In this document: in pieces, positions 2,983-64,000 of the stretch
Layout of the letters: every line of letters begins with the position of its first letter
Numbering within the stretch: position 1 is the stretch's first letter
Notes under the pieces: model-generated
What the model was told of the DNA's origin: nothing
The model's input: only the letters and a program-made list of their open reading frames with translations
Database searches by the model: none
Program-made: the position numbers and the translations under genes
Assembly: GCA_030141605.1 (NCBI GenBank)
Contig: JAQGDQ010000531.1
Location: forward strand, 88,608-152,607
DNA from: Tubiluchus corallicola
Lineage: Eukaryota; Animalia; Priapulida
DNA length: 64,000 nt
Reading direction: 5' to 3'

Positions 2983-3990
2983 TTATTTAAATGGCTTCTT
3001 TCTTCCTATGAAATATACTCCTGTCTCATTGCACTTTCGCTTTAAACTTTCTGAAGTTGGTTCTCTATTAACAAAAATGGGTTCGAATGCAGCTAAGAAC
3101 TTTTCCACCACGAGTAATGATATTCTAATTGGGTGAAGCTTAAACGATCCCAACACACAGTTGCCTTGTTCTGGATCTTTGTACCATCTTTCATGCCAGA
3201 TTATTGTGCCATTGTCTTTCAATAATGTGTGGGCGTTGTGAAGAAACAATAGAGCATCCTGTACATGTTCTATTACATTGATACTAATGAGCGTATCGAA
3301 TGTACCAGGTTTAGAGAACGTTTCTGCTGGAGAAGAGACAATTGTTGTTGGGTAATTGAGAATTTTACCATTTTTGTATGTACATGTTTTTACGTGTTTC
3401 ATGTACAAATCAGCCATTGGTTCAACAAGTGTGACGTGACTCACATTTACTTGTTGATTGTCTTTTAAGATATAAAAACTTTGAGTAAATGGACCGGCGC
3501 CAATTTCCACTAAGTTACCCACGTCTTTTAGTAGCCGTTTGTAACCATGGAAACCTTCTACATGTTCATTTGCACGGTCACCTTGAGGCCTTTTAATAGT
3601 CCATCTACTTAGCTCCTTCTCCTGGGCAGCTTTCCATAAGAACATTGGCACTTGGACTATACCCGTTTGTGGATTCATAAAACAACTCGCCGACAAAGAA
3701 GTTTTGGGCATGTGTTTGTCATACGTTAAAGATTGCCTTAAATTAGGGCACTCGTTCAGCCTGTTGTTATTAATCAGAAGCTTTTCACAACATTGTTCTC
3801 CACTGTATCCAGGATGGCAAAAACAATAGTTAAAATACCAACTTCCATGAGGATGACAGGCACATCTGCTGCCAATAAACGATTTTGCGCTATTTTGCCG
3901 TTGATTTTTCAAAATCATACAGAAAACTGTTAGTAACAACAACGTGGCAGGTAACTTCAATTTTGCCGTGTTCCTCAAAAAAGAATACAT
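2983..3990 (-). CDS. Type II membrane class I SAM-dependent methyltransferase with an EGF-like stem domain (335 aa, single coding exon)
   Basis: First ATG at 3990 (the ORF track starts at an upstream TTG). Hydrophobic anchor LPATLLLLTVFCMIL, EGF-like CACHPHG..YCFCHPGYSGEQC, SAM motif I LVEIGAGPF, acidic VEP, and FDTLISINVIEHV..LLKDNG typical of Methyltransf_11/23-like enzymes. Confidence 0.85.
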   Translation of the reverse strand: MYSFLRNTAKLKLPATLLLLTVFCMILKNQRQNSAKSFIGSRCACHPHGSWYFNYCFCHPGYSGEQCCEKLLINNNRLNECPNLRQSLTYDKHMPKTSLSASCFMNPQTGIVQVPMFLWKAAQEKELSRWTIKRPQGDRANEHVEGFHGYKRLLKDVGNLVEIGAGPFTQSFYILKDNQQVNVSHVTLVEPMADLYMKHVKTCTYKNGKILNYPTTIVSSPAETFSKPGTFDTLISINVIEHVQDALLFLHNAHTLLKDNGTIIWHERWYKDPEQGNCVLGSFKLHPIRISLLVVEKFLAAFEPIFVNREPTSESLKRKCNETGVYFIGRKKPFK

Positions 3991-3997
3991 AGCTTCG

Positions 3998-5013
3998 TTA
4001 AAAATGAACAACTTTGAAGATAAATGACCTGAGCTTTTTTATCACAGAAATTTTAGTTTCATTAACACCCACGGATTTATACAGATCAAATAAGTAAGAA
4101 AACATCCATTTATATTTTTGTTTGTAAAAAGTTCCCCAAGATCCGTGCAAAATTCCTATGCGTATGCTATGTGCTTGAGCAGGCTTGCAGAATTTATTTT
4201 TTAATCCATGTCCCCACCAGCGACAAGGGACGAAAGTGCAACCCCAACTCCTACAACAGAGTGTTTTGTGATAAAAAGTATGCAGTAAAAACTCTTTTTT
4301 TCAGTTGAACATTCACTGGTAAGTTTAAATATTCGCAAAACTTCCATTTTCCAGTTCGATTTTCGCATTTTGCTTAAATCTAGTAAAACAGTTCCATAAT
4401 TTAAACCTTTTTGGAGTCTAGGAAATGCCTCTGATTTTGTTCATACGCTAATAACGGTCATGTAGACGAAAATTGTGCGGTAAAGAAAAATGAATCGCAA
4501 GTTTTATCGTCTGAGATTGAGACATATAAGTGACACTAGAGCTGTTCTAGAGGCTTCATTAGAATAACATATAAATCTACTGACAAAACCTCCACATTTT
4601 GTAAAACACCCGGTAGGAATTTCTATGCAGTGTTGCAACGTTTATACCCTGGATTCAACCACTTCGTATAGTTTTCACCTGGGGGATACCAGGGATAGTA
4701 AAAGTTTTTCACAGATTGTTTCGACTTTCTCATTTAGCTAAGGTCTTCAGTCAATGCGCTATTAGTGATGTTATTGTCAGTAAAAATATGAAAGTGAATA
4801 CAGGGAGATGTTACCATAAGAGAAATTTCGCTGCGAAGTAAAATTGCTCCAAAATCTTGTCTCGTTATCAGAACAACGTGAATTGTAGTCCTTCTTTGTT
4901 CATACTGATTAACATAATAATTTGGGAGAGAATTAATCCTGTAAAAAGTTCATTATAAAATAGTATAACAGCATAAATATGAAAAAAAACTAGCAAAAAA
5001 GTTTAAACTTCAT
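3998..5013 (-). pseudogene. Intronless GT8 glucoside xylosyltransferase (GXYLT1/2-like) pseudogene
   Basis: Manual translation: MKFKLF.. hydrophobic N-terminus; TIHVVLI..LLRS..IHFHIFTD..YPWYPPGENYTKWLNPGYKRCNTA*KFLPGVLQNVEVLSVDLYVILMKPLEQL*; GLNYGTVLLDLSKMRKSNW (~4350-4407); FCKPAQAHSIRIGILHGSWGTF. Colinear with GXYLT motifs (LQFHIF, KPCASQRLFLP, YVDTD, GVNSGVMLMN, ILHGNRG). In-frame stops at 4734-4736, 4623-4625 and 4536-4538, plus frameshifts. Confidence 0.8.
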
Positions 5014-6896
5014 TGCCAAACTATCTATTACTACCAAAATGACTTGACGTTTTTTTTTCAATGCATCTTTAGAGAACTCAATCTGGCTTCTCTAGTTAAG
5101 AAAAAATTACACGATAGCCAAATGTGACCAGCACGAAGAGGATAGAAACGCTGAACGTTGGCGTGTAGACACACACATTTTAAAAAAAGACTTAAAGAAG
5201 CCTACTTTGCTGTTCGAATTTTCAACTTAAATATACACCTACTATAGGAAATGGTAATATATCAACGCAGATCTAAAACGCTGGCTATTTGAAAACTGAT
5301 CAACACACAACATTTTTCAGTGTTTTCACTGAGAAAGAACTGTCTTTCAAGAAGCAATCTGTGAGTCGACGTTTTCCAAATATTCACTCTGCCACAGCTC
5401 ATTAAAGCAGAAGAAATAGAGAAATATTCTTCTTTCGCAGAAATAGCCTGACGCGATTTAGCAAAGGATAAGAAGCACAACTTCTCAGAAATATCTTTCT
5501 GAAAAACTGTCAGCAAAACCTCGTATACCTGTTAAGTTTTTTTTCAAATGCGCAGTATTTTATAAAGTAAGTTTGTCGGGAGATTTTATACGTTACGACT
5601 GCTAGTTGATCAACATGAATACGAGTGTGTGACGCATGTGGAAAAATTTGAGTAGTACTTGAAAATGTACTATTGTTGTTGAATCTGTCAATAAGTATAG
5701 AACGTGTCACGTAAACGTAATGCCAGATTTAACTGACATGAACTAATAAATACTAGACACATTTGCAAGTTCAACGCTTTACATTCGATGAATAACAATT
5801 TGTGTGTTGCAAAACTCAAGCATGAGATATTTTTCTAAATCAATACGGATCAAATTCGTGTGTGTTTCAATAACATTAACGTTGGCTCTCGTTTTTTACT
5901 TATATATCTACACACATCCGTTAAACGAAGGTAAGATAAAGCAAGATGATGAGCGATCTATCAATTAATTTAGTTGATCATTAAACCCAAAAGAATGGTC
6001 AATATTCAAGAATTACTAAAACTAAAGTTGGATTTTAACGTTAATCATACAAAACGAATAAATTTTACAGTATAAATTTCCAAGAGGCTTACCAACGGTC
6101 AACAGCAGATTATTAATTTAATTCTTTTTTTTAATATTTGAATTTTGGTCGATTTATACTAAACATTGTAGTGTGTAAACAGGTAGTACTTTTTATCCTT
6201 CTGACAATGTATAAGAAACGTTGAATGCCCTTTATAACCCATAATAAGTTGAAAAATTACAGGCGGAATGTTTAAACAATACAATATCAGTGCGAAAGAA
6301 GAACATTAAAAGAAAAGTTAATAGTTGAACATAATTGACCTGAAATATGATAAAAGTTAGAGAAAGAGTAAAAAACGACTGCATAGGAAGAAAAATTGGA
6401 ACACTATGCAATTGGTATTGATGAATACGTGAATTGATTGAGCTGCTAACCTGAGAGTGGCATTTACAGAATTTGCAATAAAGGGTATTCAACGTTTTTG
6501 TACGTTAAAGGTTGCATGCTCACGAGAGGGCTCTCATATTTTTTACAAACTGGTTGAATAGCTGAAACTTCGTTGAACTGTTGAACGGTAATTAGTAAGA
6601 CAAAATACAAAGATCAAAGGTTCAGTAGGTATCATTTTCATAAAGATCTCGTTAAGTATTAAAGATCATTAATTTTGACTAGTGAGCAATTTGGCGAGTT
6701 TGTTTGCCTTTCACAAAATCTTTACAATTTTAGGAAGCTTGTTATGCAGGTCGTTAATTAGTGACGGGTCTGAGACAGGCATTAGCCCTTACTACCCAAA
6801 AATGTGATGTCGAATTTTTTGTTAACTGCTGTGGGAAACCAACGCAAAGACGTTTTCTTAGAGGTTTTAGAGGCAGAGTGGGCTTTTTAGATTTTT

Positions 6897-7002
6897 ATGA
6901 TCGGTAAGCTTAATTTTGCATTACTGGTTACATATAATTACAAAATTGGACGCCCTTTCAGTGTTCTCAAAGCAAGATTTAGATCCTTGTATCATTCTAA
7001 TG
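6897..7002 (+). CDS. Candidate first coding exon of the sulfotransferase at 9387
   Basis: ATG-open frame MIGKLNFALLVTYNYKIG..HSN ending at G|GTATGT, a phase-1 donor compatible with the phase-1 acceptor at 9386/9387. Only weakly hydrophobic, so tentative. Confidence 0.25.
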
Positions 7003-9386
7003 GTATGTTTATGTACACGGTTAATAGCAGATGATGGATAAAAGTATTATTTATTTTGATACAAAATATTGGTAAAAGAATCAACGTACCTTCCCCATTC
7101 GGACTTCAAATGCTTGATGCAGAAAAAGAAGAGGAGCAATTAAAAGTCAAATTGAGATTTAAAGTCATAAAGTATAAATGATTGATTAGCTGATCAAAGA
7201 TATTAGAAAAATACAAAAAATAAAGGCATTCTAACAGTTTGTGACGTTTTCCTCGCCACTGTTGATAAAAGATAACAAATAAACAACTAAGCAACATTAA
7301 AATATTTAAAAGGCTTTGTTAAAGTAATAATATTATTGTTATTATATTATTTATTTCGAACATATTGTTCACATTACAGTTATAAAAAAGTACAAAATTA
7401 TCTAGGAAAAAATAAAAATTTACAATTATAGGATTGGTAGACACTGACAGAAACAATAATACATAAAAAATTAATACTTTAGATTAATTACTACTTTAGA
7501 ATAGTAATTAGATCAAAACAAAGAATAGCAGTACAATACAGATATTACAATTACACATATCCCAAATAACCACATACCTATTACACAATTTTTATACATA
7601 TTACGTTATAACAATGGAAAACACCAATGAAAGGCTAATTAACACAGAGCCAATTTTTAATTTAATTTAAGTTACACTTTTTTAAAAAATCATTATTGCA
7701 TTCAGTAGCATTTTTTATATCTTCTATCACTGGGCAAACGATTTCTTCCTCAGATTACTATCTTTAATTTTTCTCCCTTCATTTTTAGTGAAATTAATGC
7801 AATAGTTATTATTGTATTTAAAGTTAAACAATTGGTGATAATAACGTAAGATAGATCTTGTTGAAAATTCAGCTTGCCTAGCAAAATTATTAACTAATGT
7901 ATTGTGGCTCTTCGCACAAGATACATAAGATTGCACGAAACGCTTTTCAAACGGTTTATTTGGTCAAGAAAATTTACTGATGTATTTACAAATTTTGCAA
8001 ATGTTATTTTGGCAGCTTCCGTATCCATTGAACAAGCCACATAACACGTTTTAACTAATTAACGAACTATAGTATTTCCACGAGACGTGTGTGGGTATTA
8101 GCCTTACATGTAAAATTAAGAAATTGGTATGGAATTGAATTCTCATGGCACTCATCTACATTCAGTACGCAGAAGGTCTATTATTGCCTTGTCTCATTCA
8201 AAGTCTCATCTCTGGAAAAGATTTAAAATATTTGGCTATCAACACTGATTAGTACAGCAATTAAAATGCCTAGCATGCCACGTAACTTTGTTAAATAGAT
8301 TTAATAAGATATATGCTGCAGTTGGAAATGTCGCATTGTGTCCTCACAATATTAGAAAACAGTTGTATTACATGTAAAAGCAAAGTTTAATTCTGATGCT
8401 AATTTACTAAAACTTTAATTTTTATAGTATTTATAAAACAGAAGCAACTTGTAAAACTCTTGATTTTAGTTAATCGATGGACATAAATGGAAACATGTTG
8501 AACTGCGTTCTTTCGCTCATTGAGCTGTTTGGTTGCACATGATAGCTGTTCAAATTTTTGGTAATTTGTTGCAAGATTTTGATTTTTTTTATAAACCCAT
8601 TTAATCAGTTTAATCGTTCAAAAATTGTTTGCAGATTTTACACCTAAGAGAATAGTGAAAGTTTTGTTATCGAAATGCCGGGATTCAAAATAAATTAGTT
8701 ATTGTGTCTCTGCTAGTATAGGCGCTTGAGACTTCCATCATCATTAATGTCGGATTCCTCATCGTAAATATGTTTAGTTTTGAGTTTTGTTGCTAAATTT
8801 TAATTCTTGCCTAATTAAACGGTTTTGGTAATTATTTGGCCTGGGATTTTTTTTGAAAGCACTGATCGCTATTACTTTTTGCCAAAATTTGTTTTATTCA
8901 TTTATTGGTTCTCTTGACATATCTTACTGGTTGTTAACTATTGAATTACTGAAAACATTTTTTTCTTTTAATGTACAAATTTTCCATTTGCTTGGTGTGA
9001 AATAAACAATCTTGAAATCCTGAAAGTCTTGAAAATTTATTTGGTTTTTTGTTTTTTAATTACTATAGCAATTTATTGATACTGCTCCACTATGGTTCTT
9101 ACAAATTCTGTCAACTTAATGTTATCGTTATCATAGTATAATGAGAGATGGGTGGATGCTCGATGACTGAGTTGTCATTCTCCACTTTGTCTCTCTTAGA
9201 CCTTGTTATTGTGTACTAACACTTTGTTTTCTCATAACAAAGATATGTGAAATGAACAAATCGATTTAAATTCAAATTAAAATTCAGTTTTATTTTATTC
9301 ACAACTAAATAATTGCAATTCTGTCTAATAAAATAGAAGCTGAACTTAAGTATTAAACGAATTTATTTTGTAAATTTTTCCTTCAG

Positions 9387-10273
9387 AAAATTTTGTCTCA
9401 GTTTCTCGGCGGACGGTGCTAGTGAAATCGGAAAATTTTAACGGAAGGCGAAAAAAGCTGATAAGAGACACGTGTGAAAAACTCACATTTGAAAGATTTA
9501 ACAGTGATATTGCGAATATTATGGATGTAAAACGTTGGCTCGAAGAAACTTATGTAGTGCATAATTACAACTTACTTTACTGTGCTATACCAAAGGTGGC
9601 GAGTACAATGTGGAAAAGCATATTGATGGAGTTAGCATTAAAAAGCAACAAAACTACTGAAACACCTCATGGTTCAAACATCCATGCTGAAACGTATTCC
9701 TTAATATTTCGCAGAATCTTTAGAGAAAAGAGACGACACGAGGTACTAGAAACTTACAAGAAGTTCCTGTTTGTCAGGGAACCACTGGGAAGACTTTTGT
9801 CAGCTTACAAAAGTAAAATAGAGGCTGGAAGAACGTTTTTCATCAAACCAATCTACTATTTCTTTCATAAGAATTTTACGAATGTCACCATATCCTTGTC
9901 AAACTGGACTCCCACTTTCGAGCAATTTCTAATCTACATTGTACAAACTAAATTTTCAGAATTAAATGAACACTGGGCGAGATATGTGGATTTGTGTAAT
10001 GTATGTTATATAAAGTATGATTTTATAGGAAAGTTGGAGAGATTTGAGAAAGAAGCAACTAGCTTTTTAAAACCCATTTTAACACCAAAACATTTAAACT
10101 TTGTTGCCAAAAAAATTCAAAACATCGACCTTTTACTGCATTCAAGTGACGTTTTAGTTAAGTACTACAAAAATATATCTTTGGAACTGGGACGTATGAT
10201 ACATCAAAAATATTATTTGGACTTCACCATGTTCAATTATAGTTTTAGGGAGGATTTATTTCGAAAACACTGA
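9387..10273 (+). CDS. Carbohydrate sulfotransferase, Sulfotransfer_2 family (CHST8-14/HNK-1ST type), terminal catalytic exon
   Basis: 5'-PSB YCAIPKVASTMWK, 3'-PB KFLFVREPLGRLLSAYK, HW..YVDLCNVCYIKYDFIGKLE, and C-terminal YYLDFTMFNY. No ATG or TM anchor at the start; preceded by acceptor tttttccttcAG (ends 9386), with the frame open from 9387. Confidence 0.92.
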
Positions 10274-14295: not shown

Positions 14296-14449
14296 CTGGG
14301 GGAAAACCAAAGGATGCTTTAGTCGTTTACACCAAGAACACATCACTAGCGACAATTTCAACAACAGTGAGAACAGAAACTGGAAAAACAATGATAATGA
14401 TATGTGAAAGATAATGTTTGTAAACTATTTTACCGTCTTTGTAACAATA

Positions 14450-18210: not shown

Positions 18211-19197
18211 TTATGCAATGCAATTTTCCCCATATTTGTCAAGGAACCAGTGATAGTTTAATTTAGCACGGCGGATCTTTTTGTTAACACCAGTTAACCA
18301 ATTATTGTTTATCAAATAAGGATGTAGAGCTTGTCTATGAGTGTCTGAATCTCTGTAAATCATTCCATCTGCAATAAAATGATATGGATACAATGCACAC
18401 CTTGCATTTGCGAATTTGTTTTTGCACAAGAAGTCCATCACATCATCAGCATGCTCCCCGTTGGTATCTCTTTCTGCAATATGAACCATTTTTTGCCATA
18501 TGGCTATGCCACTAGATGTGGCGTTAACAAAAATATAGCTAAAGCTTAAGTTTGAAGCTGCTAAATTGCGGCCAGATTGAGCTGCCAAGATGTCATAATC
18601 TCTAAACTGAGACAAAACCAAAGGAAGTGGATTTTTTATCCAAATTGAGTCAGTTTCAAAAAGTTGGAACGAAATCTCACTTTGCAAAATAAATAAAAGA
18701 AGTTTTATCCATTCCAAGGTTAACACATGATGCTCGCGAGACCCCGATGAATACTTTCCCTGGAGATTCGCTTTAGTTCTATAATGATAAATATTTAAGT
18801 CTGGCCACTTTGTCAATAACCTTTTGGCTGTGTTTTTATCTGTTGTGATAAAAACAACTTGTTCATGAAGGTTCATATTTCTAGTGTTACATAGCCAACT
18901 CTCGACGAATTCACGAAATCCTTTGTTAAAAAGTGTGATTAATGGAAGCTTTCTTTTAGATGTTATATTCTTAAGTATAAGAAGCAAGCTATGCTTGTTA
19001 CTTGGAATATTAAATCGGCTCGGTCGTTTTTCAATTTGTCTAACTGCCATTTCGTCAAGCCATTTTTTGACAACTTCGCCTTTTGATAACAGATTGCCTG
19101 TGCTAGCACGATTAATACCATTCAGATAGACACCGACGCCGTATATCAAAAATACGCATAGCACAACCAATACGATGCAGTATATTTTGTTGCGCAT
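18211..19197 (-). CDS. GT77 nucleotide-diphospho-sugar transferase (Nucleotid_trans), type II membrane, 328 aa, intronless
   Basis: N-terminal anchor IYCIVLVVLCVFLIYGVGVYL; LFNKGFREFVESWLCN; VFITTD; FETDSIWIKNPL (metal-binding motif); INNNWLTGVNKKIRRAKLNYHWFL. Confidence 0.9.
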   Translation of the reverse strand: MRNKIYCIVLVVLCVFLIYGVGVYLNGINRASTGNLLSKGEVVKKWLDEMAVRQIEKRPSRFNIPSNKHSLLLILKNITSKRKLPLITLFNKGFREFVESWLCNTRNMNLHEQVVFITTDKNTAKRLLTKWPDLNIYHYRTKANLQGKYSSGSREHHVLTLEWIKLLLFILQSEISFQLFETDSIWIKNPLPLVLSQFRDYDILAAQSGRNLAASNLSFSYIFVNATSSGIAIWQKMVHIAERDTNGEHADDVMDFLCKNKFANARCALYPYHFIADGMIYRDSDTHRQALHPYLINNNWLTGVNKKIRRAKLNYHWFLDKYGENCIA

Positions 19198-20227
19198 TTC
19201 TAAACGTTTTTAACACTTCACAGTCTGATAATGTGCACTTTCGCCCGTTGTATGTAGGACTTATTGTTTAGGTAATGTGCATTGCATGATGCTCTGTAAT
19301 AATTATTATTATTACACACGGTATCTCATATCTTCCTGTGCGTGTTGTGAATTAAAGTAGACAGACAAGAAGAATCACAGCAAAGCGACCAAGTTCGAAA
19401 ACTCACCACGATTCCACCTAAGACGAATGCTGCTATAGTCGTTTGGGAATGGGAATGTTGCAGATTACATTTATTTATACAGTGGCTCATGACATCTGCC
19501 AACGCCTCATACCATCAATTTAAGGGAAATTCAATGAAACTTAAGTCGAGGACCTTTGTTGCACAATAACGCATTTTTGCCGCTTGTTAAGCAGTTCTGT
19601 TTAATCACTCTATTTTACTGTTAAATTGTTCTGCACGCCAAACCTGACCTTTCATGTCAGAATTCAAGTTTTATCTGCAGAAAAATAACTGTTAACCTCT
19701 TTACCAGCCACTTTGCTTTACCAGGTACTTGTTAATACACAATGATGGACTAGTTAATCTTTTCCTATTAAGGGATTAGCCATTTTTCTAAAAAACAGCT
19801 CAACCACGTGAAACTACTGCAAAAAACACCAAAAATGTTCAAAGAATTTTACAAAGAAGTATCAAATTGTGCGATATATTAATTTGCCTATCAGGACGAG
19901 GATGAAGTGGTGTTAGCCTGCAATTTAAATGGATAAAAGGAACATTATATCTTAACAGTTACGTAGCTAAAAATGAGCACGTCGAACAGTTGCGATCGTA
20001 GTTACCGCAGTATGCAGCAAATATTTCAAAATTTAAGAGAAGGAATGAGACAGCTAAAAGTTATGGTTCAGCTGTGAGTGCTGGTAGCTGATATATAATA
20101 ACTTAATAATTATAAATCCTCCTTTACTAGGACTAATCTCTCACTAATCAAGATATTGCCAAGTATCTTTCAGAAACACATACTTCCTCTACGACGTGAT
20201 TGATAAAAGCATAATTATCTAATCGCA

Positions 20228-20801
20228 ATGATAAAAGCTAACGTAACTAAAATAGCAATTCGTTTTCTAATACTAGCTGTTCTCGTTTATTATGTATGCA
20301 TTGTAGTGATGAAAACTGAACTACTGCTCTTGAAAAATCGCAATAAGTTCGACATGAAAATTCATTATGCAGAAAACGTAACTGGCACCAAAAGGAAAAT
20401 ATTGCTCTTTGTAGGAATCACAAGTGCACATAAGGAGAGAAGGGATGCAATTCGGTCATCATGGATGAAATGGTGCGATGACTTTGATGATGTGATTTGT
20501 CTATTTTTCATTCAAGCACAGGATATGTTTGGAGAAAGACTTGATGATGTGACTTTTAGCCAACTTACAGACGAAACTAAAATTCACGGAGACACTATAT
20601 TGGCAGATACACCTGGCGGTTTGAATTTTGGAAGACGTTTAGTGTGGATGTGGAACTGGGCTTTCCACAGATACGATTTCAAGTACTTTTTAAAAATAGA
20701 CGACGACACGTTTTTGTGCTTAAAAAAAGTAAGAGCAGAACTGATTGTGCTGCCATACGAAAAAGTAAATTGGGGATACAGACACTGCGAAAAAACTACA
20801 G
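20228..20801 (+). CDS. GT31 beta-1,3-glycosyltransferase (galactosyltransferase-like), exon 1
   Basis: TM IAIRFLILAVLVYYVCIVVM; LLFVGITSA..RRDAIRSSW; E..HGD; YFLKIDDDTF. Donor G|GTATGG at 20801/20802. Confidence 0.9.
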
Positions 20802-21170
20802 GTATGGAATTTTTTGTTCCAAAATGAAAATAAATCTAGATACAACTTATAATTTGCTCAAACTATATCTTTTTAGGGTTTGTAGAGTAAATGTTATTGG
20901 AAAAATGTCTTGCAGAAAATGTCTTGTTAGAATCACTGGTTTTGACATTAGCTTGCATACATTATGAGAGTTTTCTGCGTTATCTTCCAATTATTTAGTA
21001 AAAAGTGAAAAAAATAATTCGTTCTTGTCAATTCTTATTCAATTGATTCCATAAAAGAACTAGTCCTTTCTTCTTGTGACAGCTACAACCATAATGTTCA
21101 TATTGGCAGATTTTCTAAACAAAATTAGCTGTTTGTGATAGAACGTTATAATTTTTGACTTTTTTCTTAG

Positions 21171-21631
21171 GCTGGAGGCGCATGGACGAATTCTTTTTCT
21201 TAGTATCAAGAAATATTATTCAAGAGATTCTACGTAAATACTGGGCAAATTCACTTTTGTGTGATGAACATGCTGCAATATCTGCAAGAGTGTGGCTTTA
21301 TGAGATTAACAATGTCACATACTTGGATGATAATGCCAGGTTGCTCATAAACTTTGACAAGCATTTTCAGTTTCGCTCTCATGACATGTGTAGCAAAATT
21401 ATTGTCGTTCACCAGGCCTATCCACCCGAGATAAAAAAAATTTGGGATTTGACAAAGGAATCCGTGCTTTATGAAAATTATACGACCAGTTTTTTCAAAA
21501 GTTGTCCTCTCGGCAAGCCTACATATGAAAACAAACGTTTTAAATATTGCCACAACGAGACGTTTACTAGGACAGGTTTCTATGCTGGAGGAGAAGCAAG
21601 ATTTTATAAGCGATATCAACGAATGGGTTAA
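21171..21631 (+). CDS. GT31 beta-1,3-glycosyltransferase, exon 2
   Basis: Acceptor tttttcttAG ends at 21170; the phase-1 join gives a continuous 344-aa protein (574+461 nt). Confidence 0.82.

Positions 21632-21842: not shown

Positions 21843-21872
<30 letters not shown>
21710..21872. repeat. (TA)n microsatellite cluster
   Basis: Directly visible. Confidence 0.9.
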
Positions 21873-27862: not shown

Positions 27863-28394
27863 TTCAGGACCGTATGTAAAACCGAGAAACCATATGCCAC
27901 ATACGGCTATGCGATGGCAAATCTATACGTGATGTTCGCACACTTTTTCAAAAATTATCTTTCGCAACTAACAACTGCGCCAAAAAGTTAACGTTACGTT
28001 GGCATTTTTCAAAAGTTCGGCAAACTTAACTACTAAATGTTGCGAAATTGAGCGTTTGTGTAGATTTGTTTATTTGCAGATGAAAAGTGGATAAAATAAT
28101 AACATATTTAATACGCAGAAACAGGAACTGGAATGTACGAACAGAAATTGAAGTATAAAACAACAATCTACACAAAAGTACCATCTTAAACTGGACAGAT
28201 TTATTGAAAGTAATTTCACTCTGATGTGCGTGATTTTTTTCTATAGTGGTGGGACTTATTAAGAAAACAATTCATTCATGCTGATGATCATTTTATAAGA
28301 CGATTTAATGTGAAAATAATGTTTTTTTGAGCTACAGGACGGATAGAAGAAATTTTGAAGTGCGCGATGTTCTGAGGTCATTAGAAAGACAAAT

Positions 28395-40994: not shown

Positions 40995-43900
40995 TTCTCC
41001 TGTCTCCCCCTATTTTCTATTCATTACAACAATCTAAAAAAGTAATTGATCGGTCGATTTTTCAGTCTGTTATACGTTTATTTTTGCTGAATTTGCAGAT
41101 CGAAAGTTAATCTGATTAAAATGCTCAGATAGAATAAATTATCCTGCCTTAAACACTTGGTAGAATAATAGTCATTGTTTGCATTATTGGCGTTTTGATG
41201 CTAATCTCGTAACTTAATCCTATTATCTGCTTACTAACTCGGATTATAGAAGCAAAGCACCAAAAAAATGACAACAGAACAATTTATTATTCCTTAACAT
41301 TCCAATAGAATGCTATTACACGTTTTTGCAGCAGGGGTTTGTGGGAACAATTAGCATGACAATCGTGATAACACTTAATACCTTATAAACTGTAAAGCGA
41401 TTTTGAACAGAAACTGTAAATGGATTTTAAGCATTTTTAGCTATGATTGTAGGGTATTTGTGAAGTTTTGTTTCAAGTTTCAGATTTCACATCACTGCCA
41501 CACAGCTGCATTTACAACAAAAATTTTATTTCGATATCTTTGTGACTGCGCTTATAAAATTCAACGTGTTTTTGTCTTAACGAGTTATTATTTTGTTATT
41601 TTGATTACATCTATTTCTAGGAGTTTTTAATAGTAATAGGAATGCTAGTCTTTTTCTATTTTCTCTAGATGTTTACAAACATTCCCATAATGGCTGTTTA
41701 AAGGATAATGTCTGACGCCTGGCTATTAGGATGTATGCCAGTCACCCTTGAGTTATTATAAAAAGACCATTCAGATAATTTCTGGTGGACTAACCAGATG
41801 GCTCATTTCTAGGATTAAAGGTAGTTATCTTAGAGTTAATCTGCTTAGATGGATTAAGCTTTTGTTGTTGAGATGAGCTAGCCATGTTTGTAAATTTCAA
41901 TAATTATGGTCTGCATTCAAGCCAGAAACTTTTATCAGCAAACAAAAAAGCTTTGAAATCTTAAGCTCCTTTGCAATGCAAAACCTGCGGCATCAAGTCA
42001 AATCCTTAATCATCAACCTTCAGCTTCGAAGGCAGGGATTATGAGATGCTATAATCTGTATCTTGGCAATAGTGTGCCATTATTTAGTAATAAGTTTTAT
42101 ATTGAGAAAAGGAATGTAGGTAAACATGGAGCAGGAAAAAAGAGCATAAACGGAAATATAGGAAAAATAGCAAAATACTTGATTGTGCCATTATATTATA
42201 TGGGAGTAATGTGATTCCCTATAAAATGTCCACGTGTAACTGTGGAGCGGTCTTGCAAACTTCCCTCCATTTACAATGTGAGTGGCAGCTAGTCAATATA
42301 TCTGTTAGAAATGAATCTTTATGTCACTTAAACAACAAGATCTGGAGTGTATTATAACAATTAATTAGAATTCTTGGTCTTACTTTCAAGACAATACTTC
42401 TCTTGCTGGATTTGAGAAATGGCTTGTGATATGATGAACACACGAAACAAGGTAGTTACGCCATTGAATGTTGGACTGAGCGAAAAATTGTGATGCTTAC
42501 GAACTAGTATGACGTTCAAAAAACCTTAGCCATAAATTTCATATATGTGACAATCTATCAAAGGTCACGAGTGCAACAGAGTCTGTACTGTTTGCGCGGT
42601 CCAAACTATTTCTTAGCTACTATTTGCGGATTCGGCTTCAAAGCTGGAGTATTAAGTTTTATGAAAGCTTATTCGAGTTTTCTTTGCAGTGCGCAAACAA
42701 AAAACATGCAAAACTAGTTACTCACTACCCGCCATATTGCATAAAAATTCTTCACCGTTGATTATCAAGCTAAACCGCTCTTTCGGACAGTGCGGATTTC
42801 CTGACCAAAAATCAGTCTCTTCGTTTCAGATTCCGCGGATTATGCGGACGTGCGTAACAACTCTTGCAGATTTCCGAACCTAAAAGTTTCGCGGACACCT
42901 GGCGTGCAAATCTTCTACCTATCCATTAGCATGAGTAAATAGCCCCACTTTCCAGAGTTCATTTTACATTAATTGTGTAAGCTGTTTTTCATTCGACTCA
43001 TTTGCAAATGAAAGTTGTCTTCTCCTTTATTGTGTTATTGTGGGATTTTCTGTTAGTCAAGTGAATATAAGCTGTTTATCCTCTAGTAAAACCTGGAAGG
43101 TCATGCCCAGGATTAAACGGCAGGATATCCTACTCGTCTGGAATGATTTCTGAATACCGTGTTTGACATTATGCGATTACAACGCAGGAAAGAAAATGTT
43201 TGTCAATTTGTGAAACTCGACAAAGTGTCAGTGAAATCGAAACAGTGCGGGGTTAATAAATTGGAATAATCCAAAATCAAAATTATTTTGGATGATTATT
43301 GTGCAAATTCGGATTACGTTTTGGAATATTTTCTTGGAGAGAAATTAAAGTGGATTGCACAGAATTTGTAAGTTAATTGTTGTTTTGCATTAGATTTGCA
43401 GGGTACGCGGGCATTTCTTTCCAAATTCTTTGGTGCATCGATGTTTCTTGTCGCTATAGCACTGGCAACTCCGACATAAACGTTTTTTTGTAATTTTCTT
43501 TTTAATATAAATAAATGGATATAGGGTATACATTTTTAAATTTTCTTTTAGGATATGGCAAGGTGTTAAAGGTCCGGTTACTCCATTCGAGTATCTCACA
43601 TCTACAAATAGCCACACTGTCGTATGTCTGTTGAAGATGATCGTAGAATCTTTAACACAATGAAATATCCAATACATTTGACATTTCAAAAGTTATATAT
43701 AAGAAAAATGACAACACGAACAGACAGTACAGATTACTGATCCGAGCTAACCTACTTTGAAAGGAGAGTTACACCCCGTATTATCATGCTATGTAGTCCT
43801 TAACTCAGAGATATAAAATCATTAAACAAAGATATACTAATTAAACATTACACAGACATCGTGACACCACATGCCACGTATCTTGTCAGGGCCACCCTCA

Positions 43901-45329: not shown

Positions 45330-46225
45330 CAGCATGATTCCTTAACAGCATAGCTTTATCAGGCATTATTCCAAGATAATTGTAAAAATATGTATTGAAA
45401 TCTGAAAAAAGGCTATTTTTTCCACATTAGCCTATTTTATTGGTCTTGTCCGGTATACCTTATTGGTATACCTTGTCCTGGCCAATCACTACATAAATTA
45501 CTTTCCAATATACTTTTTCCTAGTGTGGAAAATGGCTTTTGCTATATACACTGGTGCTGCTGCAGTTAGGTGCATTATATTTTCGTCTGACACATCATCT
45601 CTGCGTACTTGCAGAGATTCGAGCCAAGAACTGCTCGGGACTTTATCTTGTCTGATAAATTGTAGCTCTTTAGCTTCACGTAAGAATCTTATGTGCCAAG
45701 GCTTCGGATTTCATTACTGAATTGAAAATGTTTCCTTATCTCTTCTTTCCAATGAGCGAAGAATTTGTATCAAGCCAAATGTCCTTTTAAGCTAATATTC
45801 CTATAAGAAATGTTTGTCTTATCATGTTTATTATGTTTTTCGGTTAAATGATGAGCATTTGGAAAGAAACATTGCACCATGTTTGAGACAAACGTGCATC
45901 ATAAATCCCACGACAGTACTGGACATTGCAACGAATTAGGAAATATACTATACATTCTAAACTTTCCAGAAAGTGTAACAGTTGCTGTCAGATTATTTTC
46001 CCTTTGCTTATCCATACAGCAAGGTGTAGTGAAACAAGTTGTTGCCGAAACTTCCTGCAAACATTCTCGCTGTTATGTAACACAGAGCTGGATCTATTGA
46101 ATGCAAAATGCCTAATATTTGATGCAAAATGTAAATCTGTAGAATATTTTGATTTTGAGCCTTGCCTATGTTATAGAAAAATGGAATTTCATAATTGTAT
46201 TGAACAAAAACTAAGAAAGGCACAT
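45330..46225 (-). pseudogene. GT11 alpha-1,2-fucosyltransferase pseudogene, copy 1
   Basis: ITARMFAGSFGNNLFHYTLLYG (cf. GRLGNQMFQYA.LYG); ISLKGHLA*YKFFAHWKEEIRKHFQFS (cf. L.GYFQS.KYF..IR..F.F); LQVRRDD (cf. HVRRGD); YIAKAIFHTRKKY..IYVVIGQD; DKAMLLRNH. Multiple stops and frameshifts. Confidence 0.8.
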
Positions 46226-48149: not shown

Positions 48150-48955
48150 CTTCTATCGTACTATACCGTACTGCCAAGCTTGGCTGAGGACACCACGAGG
48201 ACACTACATAAATTACTTTCCAATATACTTTTTCCTCGTGTGGAAAATGGCTTTTGCTATATACACTGGTGCTTCTGCAGTTAGGTGCATTATATTTTCA
48301 TCTGACACATCATCTCTGCGTACTTGCAGAGATTCGAGCCAAGATCTGCTCGGGACTTTGTCTAAATTGTAGCTCTTTAGCTTCACGTAAAGAATCTTAT
48401 GTGACAAGGCCTTGGTTTCATTACTGAATTGAAATAGTTTCCTTATCTCTTCTTTCCAATGAGCGAGGAATTTGTATCAAGCCAAATGTCCTTTTAAGTT
48501 AATATTCCTATAAGAAATGTTTGTCTTATCATGTTTATTACGTTTTTCGGTTAAATGATGAGCATTTGGAAAGAAGCATTGCACCATGTTTGAGACAAAC
48601 GTGCATCATAAATCCCACGACAGTACTGGACATTGCAACGAATTAGGAAATATACTATACATTCTAAACTTTCCAGAAAGTGTAACAGTTGCTGTCAGAT
48701 TATTTTCCCTTTGCTTATCCATACAGCAAGGTGTACTGAAACAAGTTGTTGCCGAAGCTTCCTGCAAACATTCTCGCTGTTATGTAACACAGAGCTGGAT
48801 CTATTGAATGCAAAACGCATAATATTCATAATGAATGCATAGTATTTGATACAAAATGTAAATCTGCAGGATGTTTTGATATTGAGCCTTGCCTATGTTA
48901 TAGATAAATGGAATTTTATAATTGTATTGAACAAAAGCTTAGGAGGGCACATGCT
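48150..48955 (-). pseudogene. GT11 alpha-1,2-fucosyltransferase pseudogene, copy 2
   Basis: GSFGNNLFQYTLLYG near 48720-48760 and LQVRRDDVSDENIMHLTAEAPVYIAKAIFHTRKKY; duplicate of copy 1 with different indels. Confidence 0.8.
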
Positions 48956-53139: not shown

Positions 53140-53770
53140 ACAGGCCATTGACCCGTATGGGGTCAAATCACAAAGGATTTACATCACAGGGCGTGTTGGT
53201 ACTATTGTACATGTCGTTGTGATGTAATTTGTTTATTTAAAATTGAAGGTTTTTAAATTCTATATCTTGAAATTCCAAGTGATTAATTTTATGTAACCCG
53301 ATCAAGGGAGCTGCTATTTCACAAATATTCTTCTTATTATTATTAATAAACATCATTGTGCCTATCTTTGTAGTATTGTACAAATTTCAGTTGAACGAAT
53401 TATGTACGTGTATTGTGGTATTTGTCTATGTCCATAGAATTACTTTTATACCTTTTGCATAATGCAAGTATACCTAGTACAATCTTGACTTTATACGATA
53501 TAGTAGTTCTAGCAATGGTCGATCGAGAGACATAGATACATATCGTCATCCAGTCTTAGAAAATACTCCTGTTCTCTTGCCCACTTCATGGCATAAAGTA
53601 GTCGTCTAGCAAAATTATATCCACCAGGCGTGTGGTTATCAAAAACAACGTCGCCATACAGGGCAGCTTCCTTTCGTAAGATGGCGTCCATTTTTTCTGG
53701 AACATGTTTCCGAATTCGTCCAGTTTCTCAGTGAAGAAAATGCATATGACATCAGAGTAAGAATCCGACG
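53140..53770 (-). pseudogene. GT31 glycosyltransferase pseudogene, 5'-truncated
   Basis: YSDVICIFFTEKLDEFGN / LRKEAALYGDVVFDNHTPGGYNFARRLLYAMKWA..YFLRLDDDMYLCL / DRPLLELLYRIKSRLY*VYLHYAKG, colinear with the 20228 gene. Weaker exon-2-like text (NICEIAAPLIGLHK) lies below 53450. Confidence 0.82.
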
Positions 53771-54773
53771 ACCAGTCCACGGAGCGCAGTTTCATCTCGG
53801 AGTTAGCAACCTCATTTCTCTCTCTAATTTCATAATCTAACCAAACTTTCTGCTGATCTGTTTCTTGGAGACCTGTAAATAGTAGCAGCTTTTTCCCGTG
53901 CCAACAGGATCCCTGCCTAGTTCCTCATAGCGTAGCAGCATGTAGATGTTGGGATACTTGCTGGCAATTACTTTGCTTGTTTCCAACTCTTCTAGCATAT
54001 ATCTGCACAAATCTGAAACGCCTGAAACAAGTTTTGTATTGCCTTCTTTTGCACGACGAAGCCATCCCCGAGGGTCACGGATGAGGTGTACGACTCTGAC
54101 ATCTATCAGTGGGCCATTAAATAATGGAATCACGTCTATTAGTCTGGTACATATGGTTTTAATCGCCACGTGTTTGTACAGTAGCCAGAAACCATTAGCT
54201 TTGCATTGCACAGCATCAGCGAATATCATAGATTTCACTTCACTCAAAACTGATGCATTAGTTTTTCTTAATCTATCAGGTCTTTCATGTCTCCATCAGT
54301 TTTTCTTGCCATTTCGTCTAACCAGTTAAAATCTGATGCTAATGACCTCACATTGAATCCTGCGTGTAGAGGCTCGTGTATGTAAGACACGTCCCCATGG
54401 TTATTAAAGTAGGTCCCGGGAAATGTTGATCCGGAGTGGAATCGACATAGCACAATTATTTCCTTCTTTCTAGATGTCAGGTGATCTGAGAGACTCAAAT
54501 GACCTAGTTGAAAGTGGTCTTCTTTATGATTGTTCTCTTCTAACAAAAGGCCTCCAGCTATTCTTGCAATATTTGCAAAGTAAAGTCCAGACAACTTTAA
54601 ACAGGTTTGCGTGCTGCTTCATGGACTGTAATATTTTTATGGAGAATGCTGTTAGAATAAATACTTGTTAAAAAAGTAAAAGTCAAATTCATAGAAAAAT
54701 TGCATACGATAATCTGGAAGCCGGAATGTGAGATTCTGAGAATAATAATGAGCAGCCACCACAACATAACCAT
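53771..54773 (-). pseudogene. Sulfotransfer_1 (CHST1-7 type Gal/GlcNAc 6-O-sulfotransferase-like) pseudogene
   Basis: IIVLCRFHSGSTFPGTYFNNHGDVSYIHEPL (5'-PSB), KHVAIKTI, VVHLIRDPRG (3'-PB), YMLLRYEELGRDP; split over several frames; hydrophobic MVMLWWLLIIIL start at 54773. Confidence 0.85.
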
Positions 54774-58350: not shown

Positions 58351-58354
58351 TTCT

Positions 58355-58605
58355 CCATCGTCGTTCAGTCCTTAGAACAATTTTTTGGGTTCAGGTCAGG
58401 AGACATTCCGTGCCACTCCAACAAGCCTATTTGATTTTCATAAAAAAAATTCACTTGTTTCGACACGGGGCCAGATCTTGTTGAAAAATACCAGATATTC
58501 GTCAAATAAATGTTTCAGTTCTGGAACAAAACTTCTGTGGAGAATCCCAGTGTGTTGTGGAGAATGCTCCATGCCCTCAATTCGTTGGAAGCTGCCAATG
58601 CCTTA
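58355..58605 (-). mobile_element. Tc1/mariner transposase remnant, second copy
   Basis: GIGSFQRIEGM..GIFQQDLAPC..ENQIGLLEWHGMSPDLNP. Confidence 0.78.
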
Positions 58606-58716
58606 ATAGCAGTTACTGTGACCCGCCTTTGTAATATAAATTAGGTTTTGTAATATATTCTCTATTTTTAAGATTACAAAACTCTTTAGAGAAAAATGTC
58701 AGTTTTGTATATACAT

Positions 58717-61700
58717 CATTTGATACACCTAGAAACTGGCTCAACCAGTGGGTGGTTTCTTCGTCTAAGTTTTCAAATTTGCCAATAAAGTTGTAATTAA
58801 TAAAACACATGCTGCATAAGTCCACACATCTATCAAAACGTTCGTCCATTTTATCGTCTTCTGTACGAATCATGTATCCCAAAAAATTCCACATATCTAG
58901 CAAAACGTTCGTCCACTTTATTGTCTTCTGTACGAACCATGTATCCCAAAAAACTCCACATATCTAGCAAAACGTTCGTCCATTTTATCGTGTTCTGTAC
59001 GAACCATGTATCCCAAAAAAGTCCACATATTTAGAAGAACGTTCGTCCATTATATCGTTTTCTCTTAGAGCCACGCATCCAAAAAACTCCACACATATCC
59101 AGCAAAATGTTAATCCATTTTGTTGTTTTCTCTACGAATCATGTATCCGAAACTTCGTTAAGGATTGCATACCAATGCAGACTTTGAATCAGCACAGTTA
59201 AGCATACTGCCGTGAATTTCCTGTTATCGCGGAATTTTAGTGTACTACTTTAAAACCAAATCGCAAAAACAACTTAACTCCAAAATAACTTTTTATAATT
59301 TTAATTCCATAAGCTTTGGATCAGAATCAGTAACACAGCCTTTTTTTTCTAAAGTTAAAGCCACAAAACTGGTCTTGAAAAAGTTCCCCTAAAACCAGTA
59401 TTCATCCACCAGTCAAATCTTAAGAAAAAGTAGGGCCAATTATTATGTATAAAGACATTAATGTGACTAGAGACTGTGGACTTGTTCAAGTTCACAACAT
59501 ATATAGCAGTTCTCATTCTTATATAAAAAAATCACAAAATGACTGTCATATCTTTATTTTATTTTTCATGTGACAATAATTGTGTTTCTTTAAGTAATAT
59601 CTTGTTGCGAGCAGTGCTACCAGCGTCTTTGGTTTCATCACTTTCGACAATATTTGTTTGTTCTTTCTCAACTGCAGACACTAGATGCACAGGACTGATG
59701 ATACTCACTTTCGTGTATCATAAGGATTAACTGCAAAGGACATTAGTTTATATAGTCCATGAGCCAGACAACTTCTAGATATCTCTTTTTTCTCTTAAAT
59801 GCAAACTTGCTGTTAAGGGTAAGTCGAAGATGGAGAAGATTAGAGATTATCATTGCTGTTATCAAGAAAACGTCGTTTGATAAACCCAGAAACTGGCTCA
59901 ACCAGTGGGTGGTTTCTTTGCCTAAGTTTTCAAATTTGCCAATAAAGTCGTAATTAATAAAACTCACGCTGCATAAGTCCACACATCTAGCAAAACGTTC
60001 GTCCATTTTATCGTCTTCTGTACGAACCACGTATTCCAAAAAATCCACATATCTAGCAAAACGTTCGTCATTTTATCGTGTTCTGTACGAACCATGTATC
60101 CCAAAAAAGTCCACATATTTAGAAGAACGTTCGTCCATTATATCGTTTTCTCTTAGAGCCACGCATCCAAAAAACTCCACACATATCCAGCAAAATGTTA
60201 GTCCATTTTGTTGTTTTCTCTACGAATCATGTATCCGAAACTTCGTTAAGGATTGCATACCAATGCAGACTTTGAATCAGCACAGTTAAGCATACTGCCG
60301 TGAATTTCCTGTTATCGCGGAATTTTAGTGTACTACTTTAAAACCAAATCGCAAAAACAACTTAACTCCAAAATAACTTTTTATAATTTTAATTCCATAA
60401 GCTTTGGATCAGAATCAGTAACACAGCCTTTTTTTTCTAAAGTTAAAGCCACAAAACTGGTCTTGAAAAAGTTCCCCTAAAACCAGTATTCATCCACCAG
60501 TCAAATCTTAAGAAAAAGTAGGGCCAATTATTATGTATAAAGACATTAATGTGACTAGAGACTGTGGACTTGTTCAAGTTCACAACATATATAGCAGTTC
60601 TCATTCTTATATAAAAAAATCACAAAATGACTTTCATATCTTTATTTTATTTTTCATGTGCTAATAATTGTATTTCTTTAAGTAATGTCGTGTTGCGAGC
60701 AGAGCTACCAGAGTCTTTGGTTTCATCACTTTCGGCAATATTTGTTTGTTCTTTCTCACCTGCACAAGATGCACAGGACTGATGATACTCACTTTCGTGT
60801 ATCATAAGGATTAACTGCAAAGGACATTAGTTTATATAGTCCATGAGCCAGACAACTTCTAGATATCTCTTTTTTCTCTTAAATGCAAACTTGCTGTTAA
60901 GGGTAAGTCGAAGATGGAGAAGATTAGAGATTATCATTGCTGTTATCAAGAAAACGTCGTTTGATAAACCCAGAAACTGGCTCAACCAGTGGGTGGTTTC
61001 TTTGCCTAAGTTTTCAAATTTGCCAATAAAGTCGTAATTAATAAAACTCACGCTGCATAAGTCCACACATCTAGCAAAACGTTCGTCCATTTTATCGTCT
61101 TCTGTACGAACCACGTATTCCAAAAAATCCACATATCTAGCAAAACGTTCGTCATTTTATCGTGTTCTGTACGAACCATGTATCCCAAAAAAGTCCACAT
61201 ATTTAGAAGAACGTTCGTCCATTATATCGTTTTCTCTTAGAGCCACGCATCCAAAAAACTCCACACATATCCAGCAAAATGTTAGTCCATTTTGTTGTTT
61301 TCTCTACGAATCATGTATCCGAAACTTCGTTAAGGATTGCATACCAATGCAGACTTTGAATCAGCACAGTTAAGCATACTGCCGTGAATTTCCTGTTATC
61401 GCGGAATTTTAGTGTACTACTTTAAAACCAAATCGCAAAAACAACTTAACTGCAAAATAACTTTTTATAATTTTAATTCCATAAGCTTTGTATTAGAATC
61501 AGTAACACAGCTGTTTTTTTTTCTAAAGTTAAAGCCACAAAACTGGTCTTGAAAAAGTTCCCCTAAAACCAGATCCATCCACCAGTCAAATCTTAAGAAA
61601 AAAGTAGAGCCAATTATTACGTATAAAGACATTAATATGACTAGAGGCTGTGGACTTGTCCAAGATTACATTTGATACACCTAGAAACTGGCTCAACCAG

Positions 61701-64000
61701 TGGGTGGTTTCTTCGTCTAAGTTTTCAAATTTGCCAATAAAGTTGTAATTAATAAAACACATGCTGCATAAGTCCACACATCTATCAAAACGTTCGTCCA
61801 TTTTATCGTCTTCTGTACGAATCATGTATCCCAAAAAATTCCACATATCTAGCAAAACGTTCGTCCACTTTATTGTCTTCTGTACGAACCATGTATCCCA
61901 AAAAACTCCACATATCTAGCAAAACGTTCGTCCATTTTATCGTGTTCTGTACGAACCATGTATCCCAAAAAAGTCCACATATTTAGAAGAACGTTCGTCC
62001 ATTATATCGTTTTCTCTTAGAGCCACGCATCCAAAAAACTCCACACATATCCAGCAAAATGTTAATCCATTTTGTTGTTTTCTCTACGAATCATGTATCC
62101 GAAACTTCGTTAAGGATTGCATACCAATGCAGACTTTGAATCAGCACAGTTAAGCATACTGCCGTGAATTTCCTGTTATCGCGGAATTTTAGTGTACTAC
62201 TTTAAAACCAAATCGCAAAAACAACTTAACTCCAAAATAACTTTTTATAATTTTAATTCCATAAGCTTTGGATCAGAATCAGTAACACAGCCTTTTTTTT
62301 CTAAAGTTAAAGCCACAAAACTGGTCTTGAAAAAGTTCCCCTAAAACCAGTATTCATCCACCAGTCAAATCTTAAGAAAAAGTAGGGCCAATTATTATGT
62401 ATAAAGACATTAATGTGACTAGAGACTGTGGACTTGTTCAAGTTCACAACATATATAGCAGTTCTCATTCTTATATAAAAAAATCACAAAATGACTTTCA
62501 TATCTTTATTTTATTTTTCATGTGCTAATAATTGTGTTTCTTTAAGTAATGTCGTGTTGCGAGCAGTGCTACCAGCGTCTTTGGTTTCATCACTTTCGAC
62601 AATATTTGTTTGTTCTTTCTCAACTGCAGACACTAGATGCACAGGACTGATGATACTCACTTTCGTGTATCATAAGGATTAACTGCAAAGGACATTAGTT
62701 TATATAGTCCATGAGCCAGACAACTTCTAGATATCTCTTTTTTCTCTTAAATGCAAACTTGCTGTTAAGGGTAAGTCGAAGATGGAGAAGATTAGAGATT
62801 ATCATTGCTGTTATCAAGAAAACGTCGTTTGATAAACCCAGAAACTGGCTCAACCAGTGGGTGGTTTCTTTGCCTAAGTTTTCAAATTTGCCAATAAAGT
62901 CGTAATTAATAAAACTCACGCTGCATAAGTCCACACATCTAGCAAAACGTTCGTCCATTTTATCGTCTTCTGTACGAACCACGTATTCCAAAAAATCCAC
63001 ATATCTAGCAAAACGTTCGTCATTTTATCGTGTTCTGTACGAACCATGTATCCCAAAAAAGTCCACATATTTAGAAGAACGTTCGTCCATTATATCGTTT
63101 TCTCTTAGAGCCACGCATCCAAAAAACTCCACACATATCCAGCAAAATGTTAGTTCCTTTTGTTGTTTTCTCTACGAATCATGTATCCGAAACTTCGTTA
63201 AGGATTGCATACCAATGCAGACTTTGAATCAGCACAGTTAAGCATACTGCCGTGAATTTCCTGTTATCGCGGAATTTTAGTGTACTACTTTAAAACCAAA
63301 TCGCAAAAACAACTTAACTCCAAAATAACTTTTTATAATTTTAATTCCATAAGCTTTGGATCAGAATCAGTAACACAGCCTTTTTTTTCTAAAGTTAAAG
63401 CCACAAAACTGGTCTTGAAAAAGTTCCCCTAAAACCAGTATTCATCCACCAGTCAAATCTTAAGAAAAAGTAGGGCCAATTATTATGTATAAAGACATTA
63501 ATGTGACTAGAGACTGTGGACTTGTTCAAGTTCACAACATATATAGCAGTTCTCATTCTTATATAAAAAAATCACAAAATGACTTTCATATCTTTATTTT
63601 ATTTTTCATGTGCTAATAATTGTGTTTCTTTAAGTAATGTCGTGTTGCGAGCAGTGCTACCAGCGTCTTTGGTTTCATCACTTTCGACAATATTTGTTTG
63701 TTCTTTCTCACCTGCAGACACTAGATGCACGGGACTGATGATACTCACTTTCGTGTATCATAAGGATTAACTGCAAAGGACATTAGTTTATATAGTCCGT
63801 GAGCCAGACAACTTCTTGGTATCTCTTTTTTCTCTTAAATGCAAACTTGCTGTTATGGTTAAGTCGAAGATGGAGAAGATTAGAGATTATCATTGCTGTT
63901 ATCAAGAAAACGTCGTTTGATAAACCCAGAAACTGGCTCAACCAGTGGGTGGTTTCTTTGCCTAAGTTTTCAAATTTGCCAATAAAGTCGTGATTAATAA
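58717..64000 (-). repeat. Higher-order tandem array (2952-bp period) built from a Sulfotransfer_2 pseudogene fragment; runs off the window end
   Basis: Marker gaaactggctcaaccagtgggtgg at 58732, 59889, 60973, 61684, 62841 and 63929 (spacings 1157, 1084, 711, 1157, 1088). Each unit encodes FLEYVVRTEDDKMDERFARCVDLCSVSFINYDFIGKFENL or a variant, homologous to FLIYIVQTKFSELNEHWARYVDLCNVCYIKYDFIGKLERF of the 9387 gene. Confidence 0.92.

Follow-up and report, generated by a model that had tools for sequence, protein, structure and literature searches.

The stretch of DNA described here (the window) covers 64,000 nucleotides (nt) of the priapulid Tubiluchus corallicola (GenBank assembly GCA_030141605.1, contig JAQGDQ010000531.1, positions 88,608 to 152,607 of the forward strand), and carries seven intact genes between positions 2983 and 33633, i.e. 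within 30.7 kb. The first-pass annotation had proposed a locus that builds one Golgi glycan. What stands of this proposal, supported by gene content, head-to-head layout and the occurrence of these families as fusions in other organisms, is a non-random island of Golgi glycan genes; the seven-gene feature is real, and mere chance an improbable origin. A probability of about 55% is given to the reading that these genes form an island of co-regulated glycan-enzyme pairs, which would build a sulfated, O-methylated surface or secreted Golgi glycan under birth-and-death turnover. An island is favoured because every one of the seven intact genes is of a glycan-enzyme type and the search for further genes gave none. 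That all seven act on one glycan is put forward as a tentative extension.

Gene content of the window

The intact set consists of two GT77-type genes (GT77a and GT77b, so named for a PF03407 match, which is not the same as an assignment to CAZy GT77), one GT31 gene, one orphan GT13-like glycosyltransferase gene (GTx), one Sulfotransfer_2 gene, one S-adenosylmethionine (SAM) methyltransferase gene (MT1) and one DUF268 gene. Six of them pass the Pfam cut-offs and the exception, GTx, is assigned by its structure model, confirming the seven glycosyl-, sulfo- and methyltransferase genes initially recognised. The six families showed no cross-family similarity when the window proteins were compared by tblastn. 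The GT31, GT77 and GTx types all have the GT-A fold; the set, which had been described as one of different folds, therefore comprises four folds rather than one per family. At least three non-homologous enzyme genes are physically adjacent, which is one mark of a eukaryotic biosynthetic gene cluster; the others are co-expression, action on one product, and linkage that is conserved in relatives or enriched over the genome background.

A clear signal anchor was found in six of the seven products. This is the number originally counted; the anchor of the Sulfotransfer_2 protein is supplied by an exon 3.5 kb upstream, and the DUF268 protein, with a hydrophobic stretch of only 13 residues, is the unclear case. 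Five genes have a single coding exon, and the other two (Sulfotransfer_2 and GT31) contain a GT-AG intron. Intact coding sequence makes up 11% of the 64-kb window, which has a GC content of 34-35% and contains microsatellites and local duplications. The nearest named relatives of the window proteins are invertebrate (Priapulus, Owenia, Mya, Mytilus and rotifers). The two GT-AG introns, the microsatellites, the coding density and these animal relatives led us to reject an origin of the window from a bacterium or virus.

The absence of other recognisable genes, also claimed at first, was borne out by Pfam: 28 long open reading frames (ORFs) and 343 further stop-to-stop ORFs of at least 47 amino acids (aa) gave no non-glycan match above cut-off. 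The remaining matches were all under cut-off, and an NCBIfam scan gave nothing beyond Pfam. Excluded from the scan were ORFs that overlap the genes, those in microsatellites and, past 59.8 kb, the majority of those in the repeated copies; genes built solely of short exons could escape it. The purity of the gene set might thus be overstated, with unrelated multi-exon genes of short exons lying in the gaps, or the run might be a chance one. The low coding density, the calling of genes without gene predictor or transcripts and the unexplained ORFs at 13901-14326, 36487-36828 and 57449-57808 would fit this explanation; we consider it very improbable, given the lack of any ORF with a non-glycan match and the fact that seven genes would remain within 30.7 kb regardless.

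Head-to-head layout

The strand order of the seven genes is - + - + - + +. Genes of unrelated families stand head-to-head in three pairs, which take up six of the seven; DUF268 has no partner. Start codons are separated by 1831 bp in the MT1/Sulfotransfer_2 pair (spacer 3991..5821), by 1030 bp in the GT77a/GT31 pair (19198..20227) and by 532 bp in the GT77b/GTx pair (27863..28394), which is the tightest. The spacers are putative shared bidirectional promoters. Across 17900-33900, one sequencing run bearing the same species label covered short non-coding stretches only, which tells neither for nor against expression. Three divergent pairs, each within 1.9 kb, were obtained in 0.26% of 200,000 random placements (P 0.0026), the limit having been chosen post hoc.

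The expected number of runs of six glycogene loci per 30,000 positions is 0.0005 or 0.03, for glycogene shares of 5% or 10%, respectively; genes are taken as independent, and the shares are assumed rather than measured in the genome. The gene total of C. elegans is about 20,000. Its candidate Golgi genes number about 700 (PMC7614267; papers are cited here and below for the parts of their text available to us). The run calculation makes a simple chance run unlikely; it has no bearing against a hotspot of expanded families, which is considered together with the relics.

The orphan glycosyltransferase GTx and its fusions to GT77

GTx (28395..29462, plus strand) encodes 355 aa, with a signal anchor and an EDD motif at residues 164-166, near-invariant across 99 aligned sequences. 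It has no Pfam match, GNT-I (PF03071) included, and by sequence does not qualify as GT13; its atlas neighbours are GT13/GT2-like. The structure model (predicted local distance difference test, pLDDT, 92.7) has a GT-A fold and in structure comes closest to POMGnT1 and GnT-I, with Z 18.9 (root mean square deviation 3.0, 215 aligned) and Z 18.8 (3.1, 214 aligned), against at most 14.6 for GT2 enzymes. Of the initial description as a "GT2-like" gene, the glycosyltransferase is retained and GT2 is not. Judged by the model, GTx is a GT-A enzyme with GT13 as its nearest family: fold and EDD motif are common to GTx, GnT-I and POMGnT1, whereas identity is only 14-17% and the PF03071 match is missing.

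The GTx family, itself without a Pfam match, is large: 938 proteins reach an E-value of 1e-10 or lower. Domains were counted in the 150 best matches (P0101-P0250), 33 of which are at least 479 aa long. PF03407 is present, in a separate region, in 16 of these 33, four of the 16 also carrying a methyltransferase domain, and in none of ten shorter matches scanned. When a profile was built from GT77a and GT77b, 13 of the 150 matched it, with a best E of 1e-29. GTx and GT77b, whose families are fused elsewhere, form the closest pair here, and the fusions make it likely that GTx and GT77 enzymes are partners. Fusions of the GTx family to GT61, DUF273/GT34, Cas1 acyltransferase, epimerase and methyltransferases were also observed.

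MT1 and its glycan links elsewhere

MT1 (2983..3990, minus strand) is a single-exon gene for a class I SAM methyltransferase of 335 aa, in which a signal anchor is followed by a Cys-rich EGF-like stem. It matches Methyltransf_23/12/11 in Pfam (E 2e-7) and has an EIGAG motif; its profile gave only one weak match in the PDB (E 0.006). Among the 97 relatives found, two Mytilus proteins and one further protein are fused to GT64.

Gene neighbourhoods were scanned in 14 longer loci, out of 65 metagenome loci, without a control family. In ten of the 14, MT1 is fused to, or adjoins, a glycosyltransferase or nucleotide-sugar enzyme: GT77, GT64 and MT1 share one frame of 1421 aa in L025, MT1 lies head-to-head with GT31 in L030, and a GTx-like domain adjoins the MT1 locus gene in L002. 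A glycan substrate for MT1 is likely, because the families are fused or adjacent in these other genomes.

Some features of these relatives were recorded besides. L007, L011 and L016 are compact, gene-dense loci in which MT1, an FkbM methyltransferase, GT90, GT61 and DUF2334 stand side by side as a mixed glycan cluster. L019/L068, L021, L022 and L025 encode polyproteins of 1100-1600 aa with GT64 and at least two methyltransferase domains; of these, L068 is viral, a contig bearing an MT1 relative fused to GT64. In the Mytilus proteins P0021, P0024, P0030 and P0035, MT1 is joined to Methyltransf_24 or GT64, and two of them are labelled EXT2 and EXTL3 in the source, probably from the GT64 domain alone.

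MT1 and GTx relatives are patchily distributed, occurring in animals, in protists and on at least one contig of a virus, which raises the question of whether an old block was horizontally acquired from an alga, a protist or a giant virus and later mixed with native animal genes. A FastTree tree would agree with this: in it the window GTx and two proteins from Priapulus are surrounded by protist sequences and GT77 fusions, and those from Mya and Owenia stand apart; the tree is, however, quick, unrooted and without support testing. Moreover, the closest named GTx relatives are animal (the Priapulus proteins, 42% and 39% identical), the GTx and DUF268 atlas clusters are mostly mollusc or rotifer, and two of the genes have GT-AG introns. 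Such a transfer is regarded as improbable.

The other intact genes

The Sulfotransfer_2 gene (5822..10273, plus strand) encodes 331 aa (Pfam E 5e-40, 138.6 bits) in two exons, 5822-5930, containing the signal anchor, and 9387-10273, separated by a GT-AG intron of 3456 nt whose in-frame splice is predicted from sequence. Both motifs binding 3'-phosphoadenosine 5'-phosphosulfate (PAPS), the 5' (PKVAST) and the 3' (REPLGRLLSAY), were found.

GT77a (18211..19197, minus strand, 328 aa) and GT77b (26873..27862, minus strand, 329 aa) are single-exon genes with a signal anchor and an ETD motif, which is DxD-like. Their PF03407 E-values are 2e-24 and 1e-25 (87 and 91 bits, against a cut-off of 22), and they are 38% identical to each other; the nearest of the two relatives returned by the GT77 search is 55% identical to GT77b. 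GT77 was described as plant-only in 2012 (PMC3355507). The GT31 (Galactosyl_T) gene (20228..21631, plus strand, Pfam E 2e-7) encodes 344 aa with a signal anchor in exons 20228-20801 and 21171-21631, around a GT-AG intron of 369 nt.

The DUF268 gene (32551..33633, plus strand, Pfam E 4e-28) encodes 360 aa, the short hydrophobic stretch being N-terminal. The protein is likely a SAM methyltransferase, to judge from atlas names: one of the three best atlas clusters is automatically named SAM-dependent methyltransferase, and the atlas neighbours have Methyltransf_11 in common, at scores below 0.9. No PDB match and no bacterial loci were found for it. C. elegans has 11 DUF268 genes (PMC3534327); a mention of "DUF268" in PMC4520260 was rejected, the text reading DUF2683.

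For ORFs of 106-141 aa at 13901-14326 (minus strand), 57449-57808 (plus strand) and 26290-26702, neither Pfam nor NCBIfam gave a match above cut-off. Likely retroelement scraps are found at 47590-47733 (minus strand; DUF5641, E 4e-4, under cut-off) and at 15171-15512 (minus strand), an ORF without database match that we take to resemble a coiled coil of ORF1 of a long interspersed nuclear element. An inverted pair at 17386-18156 resembles a small DNA transposon. Dispersed repeats, 76-93% alike, occur at 24043-24417 and 31285-31660, at 24746-25046 and 29838-30145, and at 52231-53015 and 57973-58542.

Relics and duplications in the right half

The right half of the window is made of relics, local duplications and repeats. 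Relics were scored by frameshift-tolerant profiles, the background maximum being taken elsewhere in the window and in a reversed-window control. Two copies of a GT11 fucosyltransferase pseudogene, with stops and frameshifts, lie on the minus strand: copy A at 45510..46070, and copy B at 48190..48780, inside a local duplication of 93% identity. Both give colinear matches to a profile of 78 bacterial GT11 proteins, scoring 76 and 66 against a background of at most 44. This profile alone detects them; they are not significant by single-frame Pfam, plasmid tblastn or one E. coli query.

A frameshifted GT31 fragment (53524..53894, minus strand) was identified by tblastn (E 7e-14) and lies just below the Pfam cut-off (E 8e-5). 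Next to it, at 53903..54618 (minus strand), is a frameshifted pseudogene of a second sulfotransferase type, with a profile score of 84 against a background of at most 48, weak matches to a gene annotated as sulfotransferase and no Pfam match; by its motifs we take it to be Sulfotransfer_1/CHST1-like. Six Sulfotransfer_2 fragments (58670..63998, minus strand), found by tblastn and Pfam, lie in tandem duplications of 96-99% identity that extend past the window end. Between 58700 and 64000 the units measure about 0.8-1.1 and 3 kb, with internal repeats of 66-67 bp that reproduce part of a sulfotransferase coding sequence. These duplications are either a very recent amplification or an assembly artefact.

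The first-pass annotation had listed GT8 and GT11 among the families and read the glycan as formerly xylosylated. GT11 is present, as relics; GT8 rests on a single candidate at 42373..43110 (plus strand), possibly a relic by likeness to xyloside xylosyltransferase motifs, which Pfam, PDB, profile and protein-query searches all failed to confirm, the only protein query being a bacterial GT8 protein. The xylosylation leaned on this relic and is just as doubtful; the GT11, GT31, Sulfotransfer_2 and second-type sulfotransferase relics hold. Upstream, an ORF at 36487-36828 (plus strand) contains, at 36610, basic residues followed by a hydrophobic stretch and so resembles a first exon coding for a signal anchor. 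As in the Sulfotransfer_2 gene, this might be the distant first exon of the possible GT8 relic, which lies 5.5 kb further downstream. Neither the families present in the window nor a set of 863 fetched proteins and ORFs yielded any further relic.

A birth-and-death turnover of the locus is suggested by its GT11, GT31 and sulfotransferase relics. Turnover might also operate without a shared pathway, expanded and nearly intronless families collecting in a permissive, fast-evolving region while acting on different glycans. The composition of the right half, the prevalence of single coding exons, the low identity of the two GT77 copies and the 11 DUF268 genes of C. elegans are compatible with such a hotspot, and PMC7614267 cautions that its own clusters contain several members of one family. 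It leaves unexplained, however, why solely glycan enzymes gather here, and why GT77b and GTx, whose families are fused elsewhere, form so tight a pair. This is the main alternative; it is possible, though we hold it to be rather doubtful.

Discussion

Type II Golgi enzymes of the GT31, GT77 and GT13-like types act as sugar transferases. Sulfotransfer_2 enzymes use PAPS to sulfate the sugars, which can also be O-methylated by SAM enzymes. If the locus is an island of co-regulated pairs, each head-to-head pair would be driven by a shared bidirectional promoter, and the seven products would be Golgi membrane enzymes, as predicted. GT31, the two GT77-type enzymes and GTx would add the sugars, the Sulfotransfer_2 enzyme would transfer sulfate from PAPS, and MT1 and the DUF268 protein would O-methylate sugars with SAM. 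Birth-and-death turnover would be expected for a variable glycan of mucus, glycocalyx or egg coat.

Several points weigh against this reading. Orientation alone is not significant, three divergent pairs occurring in 6.2% of the 200,000 random placements (P 0.062). Four of the 14 MT1 loci have no glycan neighbour, three of the positive ones (L007, L011 and L016) are mutually similar, and the scan covered just these 14 of 65 loci, with no control family. Among 12 fusion proteins of GTx and GT77 whose records were consulted, one comes from a red alga and none bears an animal name. The single-sequence structure model of the DUF268 protein failed (pLDDT 34, unusable). The window has no gene for a nucleotide-sugar, PAPS or SAM transporter or for a carrier protein, and donor sugars and acceptors are not readable from sequence.

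The closest known systems are the C. elegans glycoclusters C13A2, K06H6 and T15D6, which mix glycosyltransferases, methyltransferases, transporters and DUF268, are partly co-expressed and are of untested function (PMC7614267). As in the window, they combine several CAZy glycosyltransferase families, putative methyltransferases and DUF268 in type II Golgi-like proteins, with several members of one family. The rarity in animals stressed at first has to be qualified, and the surprise is lower than claimed, because such mixed clusters are already described. Their authors invoke polycistronic operons to account for the co-expression, whereas strands alternate in the window and six genes are head-to-head. 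Nucleotide-sugar transporters, DUF273 and DUF1647, named for the C. elegans clusters, were not found in the window; conversely, sulfotransferases and the GT13-like orphan are not named for those clusters in the passages of PMC7614267 used here, and its Fig. S15 may list families shared with the window. The locus belongs to this known kind and varies it by its head-to-head pairs, its sulfotransferases, its orphan family and, probably, its position outside nematodes. No mixed glycogene cluster of an animal other than C. elegans was found in the literature searched, subscription journals being mostly outside its coverage.

Ostreococcus and other Mamiellales have a small outlier chromosome that is hypervariable and, like the window, dense in glycosyltransferases and methyltransferases, with links to surface change and virus resistance (PMC5371798); it is algal, of chromosome scale and backed by expression evidence, whereas the window is animal-type, at least 64 kb long, and has introns and pseudogenes. 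Glycogene clusters of giant viruses (PMC10117803, PMC9614988) also link glycosyltransferases and methyltransferases (compare L068), but are gene-dense and often encode polyproteins with sugar-synthesis enzymes, neither of which is seen in the window. Small-molecule gene clusters are known in animals (PMC11869996, PMC7036892). The mollusc bur-ox cluster (PMC11869996) resembles the locus in linking non-homologous enzymes in an invertebrate genome, and differs in that its linkage is conserved across species, its enzymes were assayed and its product is a small molecule.

What is new in the locus is head-to-head pairing together with fusion of the same families elsewhere. A far-reaching view, which we regard as doubtful, is that non-nematode animals carry true glycan biosynthetic clusters, a counterpart of O-antigen loci, in which bidirectional pairs would encode every step of one sulfated, O-methylated surface glycan and swap modules over time; MT1 and the DUF268 protein would then be animal glycan O-methyltransferases, and GTx/GT77 an ancient pair that algae and protists carry as fusions and the locus as head-to-head genes. 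PMC7614267 leaves open whether glycogene clusters of animals amount to pathways, and the glycan methyltransferases of C. elegans are described as unidentified (PMC7614267, PMC6422873). The locus names two candidates for such enzymes, MT1 and the DUF268 protein, and offers an uncharacterised GT13-like family with a predicted GT77 partner; its layout lends itself to a test of co-regulation. Should such islands prove general, invertebrate genomes could be mined for glycan pathways in the way bacterial genomes are.

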